Assembly: GCA_024790105.1 (NCBI GenBank) | Contig: GCA_024790105.1_3053.1 | Length of the DNA: 64,000 nt | Reading direction: 5' to 3' (one strand) | From: a phage | In this document: positions 483 through 5,022 of the stretch, in pieces | Position numbering within the stretch: position 1 is the stretch's first letter | Layout of the letters: each line of letters opens with the position of its first letter | The notes under the pieces: model-generated | Told to the model about the DNA's origin: nothing | Database searches by the model: none | The model's input: only the letters and a program-made list of their open reading frames with translations | Position numbers and translations under genes: made by a program

Positions 483-1020
483 TTACTATTTCCAAAAGTT
501 TATTATTTTTAAGGTAATTAGCCTTTTCTAGGACTTCAAAAGCATATTTAGAACCAGCTTTAACATTCCATCCCGAATTATAAGAGGATATTGCTTTTCT
601 TATATCGCCCTTATGTATATTTAACCAATAAGAAAGTTCAATGTACGCCCAGGAAGCTGAATTGGATCGTTTATTCAACATTCTTTTTATTTCAGCATCG
701 GTCATATTATAACCAAGTTCCTTAACTCTTGCTCGCATAGTAGGCAAATAATTTTGGAACATTCCGTAGGCGTGATGCTTTGGTTTAGATTTTAAATTAA
801 CTCCGCCAGAGCTTTCTTGCCATAAAATAGCAGCCATTATATGACCTAATCCGCTCTTGTGGATATTTTTGTGTGTTTTATATTTTCCATCCTTAGAAAA
901 CTGTTCCCCGAATTGATACGCGTAACGCATGTTATCGAGTTGGACATTACTGAAAGTATGCTCGGAGCTATGTGCCATCATAGAAATAGCCAATAGACCA
1001 GCGAGTAGTGCTTTTCTCAT
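475..1020 (-). CDS. secreted lytic transglycosylase-like protein (SLT domain)
   Basis: 181 aa; N-terminal signal-peptide-like segment; ILWQESSGG and AYGMFQ motifs typical of SLT/lysozyme-like transglycosylases. Confidence 0.55.
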   Translation of the reverse strand: MRKALLAGLLAISMMAHSSEHTFSNVQLDNMRYAYQFGEQFSKDGKYKTHKNIHKSGLGHIMAAILWQESSGGVNLKSKPKHHAYGMFQNYLPTMRARVKELGYNMTDAEIKRMLNKRSNSASWAYIELSYWLNIHKGDIRKAISSYNSGWNVKAGSKYAFEVLEKANYLKNNKLLEIVND

Positions 1021-1027
1021 GCTTACC

Positions 1028-1489
1028 TCATTGAGTTTTAATTACTGCTTTAGAAGCCTTTCCTGGTAAACGACGACTGTTAATAATTGCCATCCTGCAT
1101 TGAAGTAACGGGTTTTTGAACTTCTCATTAGGCTTACAAACCGTAAATCCAAGCCAAAGATTTCCATCTGTGATTTCTAAACGTCCAGGACGATATTCAA
1201 CCCCATCAATAAAATCCTCGTCAATGTCAGGACGCGGAGGCATACTCAGGAATTCATTAACTTCTAAAACATGGTCTTTTATTTTATGGAATAATTCAAA
1301 AACATATGTCTCATCAATCTCCCGTTGAATTGCACGATCAAGAAGATGTTGAGAATATTTTAGATGAAACGATGAGACCCCTGCTGCTTTTGATGCCTCA
1401 CGAATCTCATTGTTAATTTGACGAAACTCCGACTCAAAATGACGACGAAGCTTATTTCGACGGATAAAAACTTCTGTATTGATAGTCAT
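1028..1489 (-). CDS. regB: RegB endoribonuclease
   Basis: 153 aa, near-identical to remembered T4 RegB (MTINTEVFIRRNKLRRHFESEF...). Confidence 0.85.
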   Translation of the reverse strand: MTINTEVFIRRNKLRRHFESEFRQINNEIREASKAAGVSSFHLKYSQHLLDRAIQREIDETYVFELFHKIKDHVLEVNEFLSMPPRPDIDEDFIDGVEYRPGRLEITDGNLWLGFTVCKPNEKFKNPLLQCRMAIINSRRLPGKASKAVIKTQ

Positions 1490-1548
1490 GTTATTCTCCT
1501 CTTAACTGATAGAAAAATTATACCACAGTCAAGAGGAAAAGTAAACAG

Positions 1549-1827
1549 TTATTCTTTAAATCTGATCAATTTATTCATAGACTTTGAGACTTCTGCACGA
1601 ACCTCATGTAGATTTTTGAGCTGTTCAAGACGCTGCGCATAGTAAGCAATTTCATCTTCTTCTAGACAGTCCTGTGAATCTTCTTTAAGATAACGCGCAT
1701 AGTCCTGGAAAGCATTACGAATTACTTCTTGGAAGTCATCAAGACTTTGAATTTTCTTAGGAGCAACAGATACACGACGAGGGGCAGTATAATACTCATA
1801 ACCAAACCCTGCGCTTAATTGAGCCAT
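1549..1827 (-). CDS. hypothetical protein
   Basis: ORF downstream of regB on minus strand; start chosen at internal ATG (MAQLSAG...) that overlaps the upstream stop in a TAATG arrangement. Confidence 0.4.
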
Positions 1828-2093
1828 TAGTATTTTTCCTCTGGTTGGAACACAGCACGGCAAGCCCACATACTGGCTTCTTTGAGTTTCGTTTTAGCAA
1901 TAGTTAACTGATCTAGGCTTTCAGCATAATTCTTTGCGAATTCGTAGTCTTCACAATTATCTAGTGCTTCCCAGAATTCATCATATAAAGCGTCAAAGAT
2001 AAGTCCTAAACGAACTTCAGCGTCTTTGATAGCATTCACTTTACCGATTTTCTCTTCAGTATGTGGTTTATAACCCTTAATATCTTCAATCAT
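1827..2093 (-). CDS. hypothetical protein
   Basis: ORF in operon; start chosen at ATG overlapping the upstream stop (ATGATTGA). Confidence 0.4.
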
Positions 2094-2307
2094 ATTTGAC
2101 TTCCTCGCCCGTTCCCAAATCATATTCAACTAAACGAATAGGTTCATGAATGCCATATCCCTGAACAGAAATTTCTGTCGTAGGATAAATTCCATTAATA
2201 TCACCCATGTTCCATGCTTCGTTAAATTGATGTTCGCCTGAATTACTAAACCATTTGGCGAAAGCATTTAGCACATCTTCAGAACCTTCAATAATTATCT
2301 TTGCCAT
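2086..2307 (-). CDS. hypothetical protein
   Basis: 73-aa ORF whose ATG overlaps the stop of the GrcA-like gene. Confidence 0.4.
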   Translation of the reverse strand: MAKIIIEGSEDVLNAFAKWFSNSGEHQFNEAWNMGDINGIYPTTEISVQGYGIHEPIRLVEYDLGTGEEVKYD

Positions 2308-2669
2308 TACAAACTCTCGGTAAAGGTACGAGCGATAACGTCGCGCTGCTGTTCCGGAGTCAGAGAGTTAAAGCGAACTGCATAACCGGATACACGGATA
2401 GTCAGCTGCGGATATTTTTCCGGATGCTTAACTGCATCTTCCAGAGTTTCACGACGCAGAACGTTAACGTTCAGGTGTTGACCACCTTCAATTTTAACTG
2501 TAGGCTGTTGCTCAATTTCAATTTCACGGGCATGCAAACCGTAGAAAATTTCTGGGTCTACAAAAGAGTCCTCTTTAAAGGTTTTAGAGACAATAATTCG
2601 TGCTTGAATACCATCTTCAAAATAAATAGTACCTTTATGTGTGCCTTCAAGAATTTGATATGCTTTCAT
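2307..2669 (-). CDS. grcA: autonomous glycyl-radical cofactor (GrcA/YfiD-like, PFL spare part)
   Basis: 120 aa; C-terminal ~60 residues ...[61 protein letters not shown] carry the glycyl radical motif RVSGYAV and match remembered E. coli GrcA/PFL C-terminus. Confidence 0.85.
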
Positions 2670-2676
2670 ATAAACC

Positions 2677-3591
2677 TCAATTAGAAAATAAATTTATCCA
2701 AGATTGTTCTTTAATTAAAAATGGCTCAGAATCATATGCCATTAAACTCTGTGTGATTAGTCCTTTAAAAGGCCCATCAATAAATTCCATGGTAAAATAT
2801 GGAATTTTATTCATTAGCCGTGCATTAGGAGCAGTACACAAAACTCTGCATCCTTTGAATACGCCTTTTTGTAATTTGTATTGCTTGGGATAAAATTCGC
2901 TTAAAATGTTGTTATTTGCCAAAATTTCAAAATGATTCACCAATTTATTTTTAATAGTTTTTGGCGAAAAATAAAGATATTCGAAAAGCTGAGTGTCTGT
3001 CATCATTGCATTCCGATTACGAAAAAACTGTGGACGAGTAATACCACCAATACAACATTTAATATTACAGCAGCAGTGTACAGTGTCAATATGGACACTA
3101 TAAATCTTATCCATATCAGGAGATTTGACAGGCTCATCAATTATATACAAAATTCGCGAAAGCGATAAACCTCTGAACTTGCTTCCTTTATTACCAATAA
3201 AACTGCGCACAGAATCAGTAAATAAACGAAAACGTATATCATCATTAGAATAACGCGAAAATTCCTTTTTAATGTTATTTGCAGAAATTTTAGCGTAAGC
3301 TGAAGTATTAGAAAGAACAATAACTGTTCCACCGTCATACAACCAATTAGCGGCAAAATTAGTTACTGCAATTGATTTACCGGATTGACGTCCACCATCT
3401 ATACGAAGTGTGCAGTACTGTTTAAGTAATTCTTCAAATGGTGGGATATAATCGTTTTTACAAATTTCTTCTACTCTAGCGTCAGAATGGTGTGTAAAAG
3501 CATTCATCAGGGATAGATAAGGACCAGTTAAAAATGTTCTCATTTTATTCTCTCTAAATTTGGGCCATTCCATGGCGCATGAATTGTCCAT
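2677..3591 (-). CDS. P-loop NTPase, terminase-ATPase-like Walker A/B, function unknown
   Basis: Walker A GGRQSGKS and Walker B LYIIDEP; ORF opens with GTG at 3606, first ATG at 3591; Cys cluster HCCCNIKCC. Confidence 0.5.
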
Positions 3592-3623
3592 TTCTGTATT
3601 TACCACTCCAAGTAATTATGAAT

Positions 3624-3653
3624 ATACTATCACAATTCTAGGAGAAAGTAAAC
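3624..3653 (-). promoter_or_regulatory. early-type promoter module upstream of the P-loop ATPase gene
   Basis: minus strand GTTTAC - 18 nt - TAGTAT; 26-nt core tatcacaattctaggagaaagtaaac repeated at 4023..4048. Confidence 0.45.
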
Positions 3654-3655
3654 TG

Positions 3656-3958
3656 TTATTTATCTTTAATTACTTTAGCTGCTTCGATAGCCGCTTGCTG
3701 AAGGTCATCCATAGACATACCGAATTTAGAAGCAAAGTTATCAATTTTCTTTTCGACAGCATTCAAAGGCTTGGCCTGTTTACCTTCATTAGCGCCAGGA
3801 AGAGCGAGAATACGCTCTTTGTCAATATAAAGGCTTACAAGTTTCTTACGGTCTTTATCGGACAAATCATGAAATGAATGGGCCTTTTTATTTATAGCGG
3901 CTTCTAATTTACCTGCACTCACTCGCGCTTCAGTAATAAATTCTTGATATGTTTTCAT
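3656..3958 (-). CDS. internal head protein with capsid targeting sequence (IPII/IPIII-like)
   Basis: 100 aa; N-terminus MKTYQEFITEA matches the T4 internal-protein capsid targeting sequence with a following L-x-E protease site; located next to e. Confidence 0.65.
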   Translation of the reverse strand: MKTYQEFITEARVSAGKLEAAINKKAHSFHDLSDKDRKKLVSLYIDKERILALPGANEGKQAKPLNAVEKKIDNFASKFGMSMDDLQQAAIEAAKVIKDK

Positions 3959-4020
3959 ATGTTTCCTTTAAATGTAAATATTTTAATTGGTAATTGACTG
4001 TTCAAATAACTGTGAATATA

Positions 4021-4049
4021 TATTATCACAATTCTAGGAGAAAGTAAAC
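4021..4049 (-). promoter_or_regulatory. early-type promoter module upstream of the internal-protein gene
   Basis: minus strand GTTTAC - 17 nt - TG-ATAATA; repeat of the module at 3624..3653. Confidence 0.45.
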
Positions 4050-4053
4050 AACT

Positions 4054-5022
<969 letters not shown>

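Follow-up and report, generated by a model that had tools for sequence, protein, structure and literature searches.

Phage gene vs.6 in a T4-like genome: a probable mosaic with a host-derived glycyl-radical domain

A phage sequence of 64,000 nucleotides (nt) (contig GCA_024790105.1_3053.1 of assembly GCA_024790105.1; this whole stretch is called the window below) carries on its minus strand, at 2307..2669, the gene vs.6, a coding sequence for a 120-amino acid autonomous glycyl-radical cofactor. The second half of the protein reads like the GrcA protein of Escherichia coli and the first half does not. The question raised by this locus is how a phage gene came to have a host-like end, and what that end does during infection. 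We consider it probable, at roughly 0.85, that the gene is the orthologue of T4 vs.6, that its product is a spare part for pyruvate formate-lyase (PFL), and that it is a mosaic whose 3' half was copied from the host.

The protein and its predicted role

The window is a Tequatrovirus (T4-like) genome, of which bases 1000-4600 were 94-97% identical to hundreds of T-even phages. The vs.6 open reading frame (ORF) is intact, with 363 nt from ATG (2669-2667) to TAA (2309-2307), and it was assigned from the list of ORFs, Pfam, PHROG, the identity to T4 Vs.6, and PDB entry 6OWR. The product shared 118 of 120 residues (98%) with T4 Vs.6, also named Y06I. It matched PHROG 1209 over its full length (residues 1-120 against profile positions 1-121, E = 5.7e-63), Pfam Gly_radical covered residues 60-101 (E = 2.5e-18), and the top relative in the PDB was E. 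coli GrcA (6OWR, E = 9e-42). Residues 61-120 were identical to GrcA residues 68-127 at 60 of 60 positions, RVSGYAV included, and the N-terminal 60 residues were strongly different. These results uphold what the original prediction had read from the letters alone, namely a GrcA-like autonomous glycyl-radical cofactor, homologous to T4 Y06I, with a host-like C-terminus of about 60 residues and a differing N-terminal half. By these comparisons, the gene at 2307-2669 is the Tequatrovirus orthologue of T4 vs.6; as such it is not new but already known.

The second structural relative was PFL, whose residues 697-759 aligned to residues 58-120 of Vs.6 (phmmer, E = 5e-26, 94 bits). The RVSGYAV motif occupies residues 92-98 and contains the fingerprint RVxG[FWY]. 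Its Gly95 aligned with G102 of GrcA and G734 of PFL and is the predicted site of the glycyl radical; the GGT codon lies at 2385..2387 on the minus strand (sequence, and alignments to 6OWR and PFL 697-759). A full-length glycyl radical enzyme (PflB/TdcE, TIGR01255) was considered and rejected, as the match was limited to profile positions 680-744 of 744 and reached 89 bits against a cut-off of 994. Because only this C-terminal segment is matched, the label "pyruvate formate-lyase" that many phage records give to the 120-residue Vs.6 is a misnomer.

Compared with the T4 protein (NP_049730; Y06I_BPT4), the window protein has the same length, its gene has the same neighbors (vs.7 upstream, vs.5 downstream, with a TAATG overlap), and its 3' tract likewise derives from E. 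coli, with junctions that coincide. The two differ at residue 54 (Q here, P in T4) and residue 73 (R here, as in E. coli, and H in T4), at a few synonymous positions, and in their surroundings, where the window lacks denV and ipIII and has vs.8 and vs.7 fused. With E. coli GrcA (YfiD, 6OWR, TIGR04365), the phage protein shares a two-part architecture in which the glycyl-radical loop and the C-terminal helix fall in the identical half. Unlike GrcA, it has an N-terminal half that is about 26% identical and 7 residues shorter, and its AT-rich gene belongs to an early operon of the phage and is without the grcA flanks ung and eamB. The likeness to the glycyl-radical domain of PflB (2PFL/1H16, residues 697-759) covers the fold segment and RVSGYAV, the piece that is lost on cleavage at G734; Vs.6 differs in standing alone with 120 amino acids, without the catalytic barrel and without the Cys418/Cys419 pair.

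Spare parts of about 14 kDa, YfiD in E. coli and Y06I in T4, restore PFL that has been cleaved by O2, according to PMC8683613, which cites Wagner 2001. In this account, the PFL activase, PFL-AE, installs a glycyl radical on YfiD or Y06I, which then forms a complex with PFL cleaved at G734, and activity is regained. Residues 61-127 of YfiD share the fold of PFL 693-759, and residues 1-60 are disordered, yet aid binding to cleaved PFL and installation of the radical (PMC8683613). For glycyl radical enzymes, experiment has validated only two spare-part proteins, and the product of vs.6 is one of them. Repair of PFL by a phage spare part, as the original prediction had proposed, has been demonstrated for the T4 protein (PMC8683613, citing Wagner et al. 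2001). For the window protein we infer the same activity with high confidence because of its 98% identity to Y06I and a structured domain that is 100% identical to E. coli GrcA.

During infection, Vs.6 would be produced from the early transcription unit, and host PFL-AE would place the radical on Gly95 of RVSGYAV. The C-terminal domain (residues ~58-120, corresponding to PFL 697-759) would dock into host PFL that oxygen has cleaved at Gly734, substitute for the lost C-terminal piece, and bring back the production of acetyl-CoA and formate. Host fermentation could then continue to supply energy under microaerobic conditions while T4 blocks the synthesis of host PFL and GrcA. A spare part made by the phage would be useful because T4 shuts off host gene expression, and the presumed benefit is that it keeps the existing PFL pool working in a microaerobic infection.

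Two halves of different origin

The last 185 nt of the gene (2307..2491, minus strand) correspond to nt 199-384 of E. coli grcA and encode the structured, PFL-inserting glycyl-radical domain (residues 61-120); this tract was delimited by blastn, alignment, and GC content. When vs.6 was compared by blastn with complete E. coli genomes, ORF nt 179-363 matched grcA at 97.3% in 5426/5426 of them, and the first 178 nt had no nucleotide match in any of the 5,426. Identity begins after ..TT at GAAGGTGG and runs to the stop codon, where the homology to grcA stops. The core of the tract (2320-2491, 171 nt) departs from E. coli only at position 2400; four more differences fall within the final 13 nt, beside the TAATG overlap with the following gene. 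All five differences from E. coli are synonymous, and the last two codons of vs.6 are phage-specific.

The near-identity is specific to one host genus. Over the 171-nt core, identity was 98.8% to E. coli, 87.7% to Klebsiella pneumoniae, and 81.9% to Salmonella, and over the tract it was 92% to grcA of Citrobacter, 88% to Klebsiella, and 82% to Salmonella. The nearest bacterial grcA was that of Escherichia in 999 of 1000 bootstraps for the window gene and in 1000 of 1000 for seven of nine Tequatrovirus and Mosigvirus genes, T4 included. Composition changes at the same place: the tract has a GC content of 0.49 and a third-position GC of 0.43 (0.50 and 0.43 in the same tract of E. coli grcA) vs 0.34 and 0.22 in the 5' half and 0.33-0.38 and 0.24-0.30 in the neighboring genes. 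The amino acid composition does not force this GC level on the tract, since a Yersinia jumbo phage codes for the same domain at a GC of 0.33.

Two other directions of descent were tried and rejected. With pflB or tdcE as donor the identity was about 77-82% (about 81% for pflB) against 97% for grcA. Transfer from phage to host does not fit the E. coli gene, which is compositionally uniform (third-position GC of 0.42 and 0.43 in its two halves), in contrast to the heterogeneous phage gene; both halves of E. coli grcA also diverge from other Enterobacteriaceae as vertical descent predicts.

The 5' half (2492..2669, minus strand) was delimited by its lack of an E. coli nucleotide match, by the alignment of phage N-terminal halves, and by hhalign. 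Its protein sequence is kept across Tequatrovirus, Mosigvirus, Jiaodavirus, Karamvirus, Slopekvirus, and Pseudotevenvirus, and is still recognizable in T5-like and jumbo phages. Phage and bacterial GrcA N-terminal halves aligned by hhalign with a probability of 95.9% (E = 6.5e-9, 26% identity, 62 columns). These halves are homologous, and therefore the whole of vs.6 is a GrcA homologue with two halves of very different age: the 5' half is an old phage-specific branch of GrcA, and only the structured 3' half has been overwritten by host sequence.

The tract is a host-derived segment of the kind left by recent horizontal transfer or gene conversion. This call is based on the host-specific near-identity at synonymous sites, the break in composition at the junction, and the negative controls with Salmonella and Enterobacter given below. 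The original prediction had raised a recent capture from the host, to be judged by how closely the 3' half follows host grcA in nucleotide sequence and codon usage, and both measures (97.3% over 185 nt and Escherichia-specific; third-position GC equal to that of the host gene) agree with a host-derived tract. The gene as a whole is not a recent capture; in an old phage homologue only the 3' half was replaced.

Recurrence of the tract and rival explanations

Some 1,600 phage genomes carry vs.6. Searches of phage records with grcA queries showed that the host-like tract is widespread. About 500 records matched E. coli grcA at 95% or more and 77 matched K. pneumoniae grcA at that level, and all four of the latter that were examined were Jiaodavirus; the queries with Salmonella and Enterobacter grcA found 0 phage records at or above 95%. 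Homologues from Slopekvirus, Pseudotevenvirus, Karamvirus, Krischvirus, T5-like, Aeromonas, and jumbo phages reached only 64-85% identity to any bacterial grcA. A host-matched tract is documented only for the Tevenvirinae of E. coli and Klebsiella.

Between phages, the halves of vs.6 diverge at unequal rates. Between Tequatrovirus and Mosigvirus, identity was 65-80% in the flanking genes, about 89% in the 5' half of vs.6, and 97-100% in the tract. The window gene and that of the Mosigvirus RPN187 had 19 differences in 180 nt of the 5' half and two in 171 nt of the tract (Fisher p = 1.6e-4), and members of both genera (ZCEC15, RPN187) had zero mismatches to E. coli over the 171-nt core. Because the halves diverge unequally and the core is free of mismatches in both genera, the tract is younger than the split between Tequatrovirus and Mosigvirus. 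The Klebsiella T-even phages (Jiaodavirus) have the same 5' junction, followed by a tract of the K. pneumoniae type. In KP17 and KPV15, the tract matched grcA of K. pneumoniae at 97.1% and that of E. coli at 86-88%, encoded LLDAVEH, the Klebsiella-type residues, in place of the LEDAVKH of E. coli, and had a third-position GC of 0.55-0.63 vs 0.20-0.27 in the 5' half. The Jiaodavirus phages KP179 and phiA85 had the opposite pattern, with two differences in 180 nt of the 5' half and 14 in 171 nt of the tract (p = 1.5e-3). The private differences of phage tracts from the host were mostly GC-to-AT, as expected for decay toward phage composition.

The unequal divergence appears to indicate that host grcA has replaced the structured half repeatedly. 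The 3' 185 nt of the window gene would have been copied recently from the chromosomal grcA of Escherichia by homeologous recombination or gene conversion within a conserved block, which is the simplest and most likely account of the sequence pattern. That the PFL-inserting half is overwritten again and again by the grcA allele of the current host, with the N-terminal half inherited vertically, we hold to be reasonably probable, with less assurance than the mosaic itself.

A single conversion per host species, after which the tract spread by recombination among co-infecting T-even phages, is rather unlikely, although it deserves serious weight. T-even phages recombine readily, Tequatrovirus and Mosigvirus have an identical 5' junction (..AAAATT followed by GAAGG), and a GAG codon near the 3' junction is common to the two genera. 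Exchange between phages, however, would not be expected to stop exactly where host homology stops, and identity between the window and Mosigvirus drops to the lower values given above just outside the host-homologous tract. The mismatch-free cores of ZCEC15 and RPN187 also speak against it, as do two Jiaodavirus phages with near-identical 5' halves whose tracts are 8% apart. A single ancient capture of grcA, with the host-like C-terminus maintained by strong purifying selection and no recent or repeated exchange, would explain the strong protein-level conservation of the last 60 residues across every phage and bacterial homologue, T5-like and jumbo phages included. We regard it as very improbable, because selection on the protein does not preserve synonymous sites. 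Codons are identical to those of E. coli at 55 of 60 positions in the window and 57 of 59 in T4, whereas other phage lineages with nearly the same protein share 17-35 of about 50-59 same-residue codons, and in the jumbo phage this domain is encoded at low GC. Ancient capture also fails to account for an identity that follows the host, with E. coli phages matching E. coli and Jiaodavirus matching K. pneumoniae, and for gene halves that diverge at significantly different rates between phages. That the host-like half is an assembly chimera or host DNA contaminating this sequence can practically be dismissed. The abrupt jump in GC within one ORF would be its mark, but the same in-frame mosaic and junctions occur in ~500 phage records from many laboratories, including the T4 Sanger record X04567 of the 1980s, and the homology halts at the stop codon with the last two codons phage-specific. 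The original prediction had already held the gene to be phage-borne and not host contamination, and its recurrence in about 500 independently sequenced phage genomes bears this out.

A different doubt concerns the partner of the protein. Instead of host PFL, Vs.6 might serve NrdD, the phage's own anaerobic ribonucleotide reductase, or more broadly the metabolism of nucleotides; a role in nucleotide metabolism was proposed from a Gly_radical Pfam hit (Nolan et al. 2006, PMC1524935). In Yersinia phage fHe-Yen9-04 the homologue (1495-1857) lies between the large subunit of the anaerobic ribonucleotide reductase (g130) and the small subunit/activase (g135), a layout that hints, for that lineage, at an "anaerobic module" or at a possible connection with NrdD. 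For the window gene we find this reading improbable. The domain has the same sequence as that of E. coli GrcA (100% identity) and aligns best with PFL 697-759 (94 bits), no NrdD chain was present among 33 PDB hits, the T4 protein reconstitutes PFL according to PMC8683613 (citing Wagner 2001), and the copying of host grcA makes sense only with host PFL and PFL-AE as partners.

Several points weigh against the preferred account of a PFL spare part overwritten by host grcA. As the Tequatrovirus and Mosigvirus junctions are the same, a single event followed by spread between phages is inseparable from two independent conversions. The assignment of a Klebsiella donor is based on one K. pneumoniae sequence, and for the older Jiaodavirus tracts the nearest-neighbor bootstrap for Klebsiella was only 39-69%. 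A neighbor-joining tree of the 171-nt core was too poorly resolved (support of 12-40% for the Klebsiella placement), and nearest-neighbor bootstraps were used in its place. The 5' junction lies at the extreme edge of the conserved block, a position that a homology-driven crossover does not obviously predict. In the GrcA/YfiD family (TIGR04365, IPR011140), Vs.6 scored 154.9 bits, below the equivalog cut-off of 170 in NCBIfam, and E. coli GrcA scored 233.9; the alignment of Vs.6 begins only at residue 20, and the low score is due to the divergent N-terminal half. The evidence for this exact protein is sequence comparison, and the literature searched contained no fitness benefit of vs.6 to T4. 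We found no description of the vs.6/grcA mosaic in the searchable literature, with older T4 literature outside the reach of the search.

If the preferred account is true, vs.6 would be a clean example, amenable to experiment, of gene conversion that tracks the host in a virulent phage that breaks down the DNA of its host, with a conversion tract bounded by the domain that must fit the host enzyme and its activase. The mosaic would show that strictly lytic T-even phages still swap short gene segments with the host chromosome, and the swapped piece is the part that docks into host PFL and is recognized by host PFL-AE. The type of tract, E. coli or Klebsiella, could serve as a natural marker of the recent host association of a phage lineage. 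It is then a question whether host-matching of the glycyl-radical domain is selected, and how the conserved phage N-terminal half acts differently from that of the host.

Intragenic recombination between host and phage reportedly also occurs in the host-derived metabolic genes psbA and psbD of cyanophages. There, too, host energy metabolism is sustained by a phage-borne copy of a host metabolic component prone to damage, and segments of the gene are exchanged with host alleles. The pathway and the hosts are different. In vs.6, unlike psbA and psbD, only the enzyme-inserting half is replaced, the boundary being sharp and close to the edge of the domain, and Vs.6 repairs a pre-existing host enzyme and does not replace a whole subunit.

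Some records met in the comparison need separate mention. The vs.6 homologue of Klebsiella phage KPV15 (NC_055715, 225-586) lacks 1 nt in its 5' half and is either a pseudogene or a sequencing error; RefSeq annotates only a 51-amino acid C-terminal "GrcA" and a 49-amino acid ORF upstream. Krischvirus homologues have a longer N-terminal half of about 78 residues. In the Krischvirus Escherichia phage MIZ4 (1492-1905) the glycyl-radical half is unusually divergent (69% nt identity to E. coli grcA) and markedly unlike that of its congener JEP8, which suggests a further replacement from a different donor. The Klebsiella grcA was taken from chromosome records mislabelled as plasmids in PLSDB, where CP125156.1 and LR134122.1 are chromosomes or fragments (e.g., a K. 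pneumoniae "plasmid" of 5.37 Mb). The K. aerogenes copy of grcA was frameshifted.

Genomic context of vs.6

On the minus strand the genes are ordered e, ipII, the vs.8/vs.7 ORF, vs.6, vs.5, vs.4, vs.3, regB, and vs.1. The vs cluster is flanked by regB (1028-1489, minus strand) and by e, the T4 lysozyme gene (4054-4548, minus strand). In this early region vs.6 lies between vs.7 and vs.5, as it does in T4, JEP6, Mosigvirus, and Jiaodavirus. The original prediction was right to place the gene between regB and e; it had also counted this location as a point of interest, which it is not, as the position is the ordinary one in T-even phages.

A Shine-Dalgarno sequence, GAGG (2675..2678, minus strand), was read 5 nt upstream of the vs.6 ATG and overlaps the TGA stop (2677-2679) of the upstream ORF. 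Downstream, the vs.6 stop and the ATG of vs.5 (2086..2307, minus strand; 73 amino acids, PHROG 1986 at 8.6e-42) overlap as TAATG, read directly in the sequence, in agreement with the overlapping start and stop codons of a phage operon that had been pointed out earlier. The overlap suggests translational coupling; it is kept in the T-even, Slopekvirus, Pseudotevenvirus, Karamvirus, and T5-like homologues, and vs.4 and vs.3 are joined in the same way.

The gene upstream of vs.6 in its transcription unit is a fused vs.8 and vs.7 ORF of 288 amino acids (2677..3543, minus strand) with the P-loop GGRQSGKS. PHROG 1488 covers amino acids 3-174 and PHROG 2049 covers 180-288. In T4, VIPECOOM02, LF82-7, and JEP6, vs.8 and vs.7 are two separate ORFs, and in the first three of these the vs.8 stop overlaps the vs.7 start. 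The frames are fused in the window because of a one-base difference in a homopolymer at 3022-3027, about 20 nt before the vs.7 ATG (coding-strand T6 here vs T5 in T4, VIPECOOM02, and LF82-7). It is either a genuine frameshift fusion or a homopolymer sequencing error.

Between this ORF and e (3544-4053), ipII (3656-3958, minus strand) is the sole gene; denV (endonuclease V) and ipIII are absent relative to T4, and JEP6 is arranged likewise. A direct repeat of 32 nt, 97% identical, lies on either side of ipII, at 3622-3653 and 4018-4049. Read on the minus strand as GTTTACTTTCTCCTAGAATTGTGATA(G/A)TATAT, it resembles a T4 early promoter. The copy at 3622..3653 (minus strand), a T4 early-promoter-like cassette of the form GTTTAC..17 nt..TAGTAT called from the direct repeat and its likeness to the consensus, is the likely start of the transcript that covers vs.8/7, vs.6, vs.5, vs.4, and vs.3. 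Promoter cassettes repeated in this way could be the means by which the denV and ipIII cassettes come to be present or absent. A generic scan for sigma-70 promoters was not above chance (20 found, 20 expected), and therefore the promoter calls rest only on likeness to the T4 early-promoter consensus. A related copy at 1517-1545 contains a TTTACT-17-TATAAT site upstream of regB.

Two genes downstream of vs.6, in the same cluster of overlapping genes, vs.4 (1827-2093, minus strand) matched the Pfam Acb2/Tad1 hairpin domain (E = 9e-20), which belongs to the anti-CBASS/anti-Thoeris nucleotide-sponge family.

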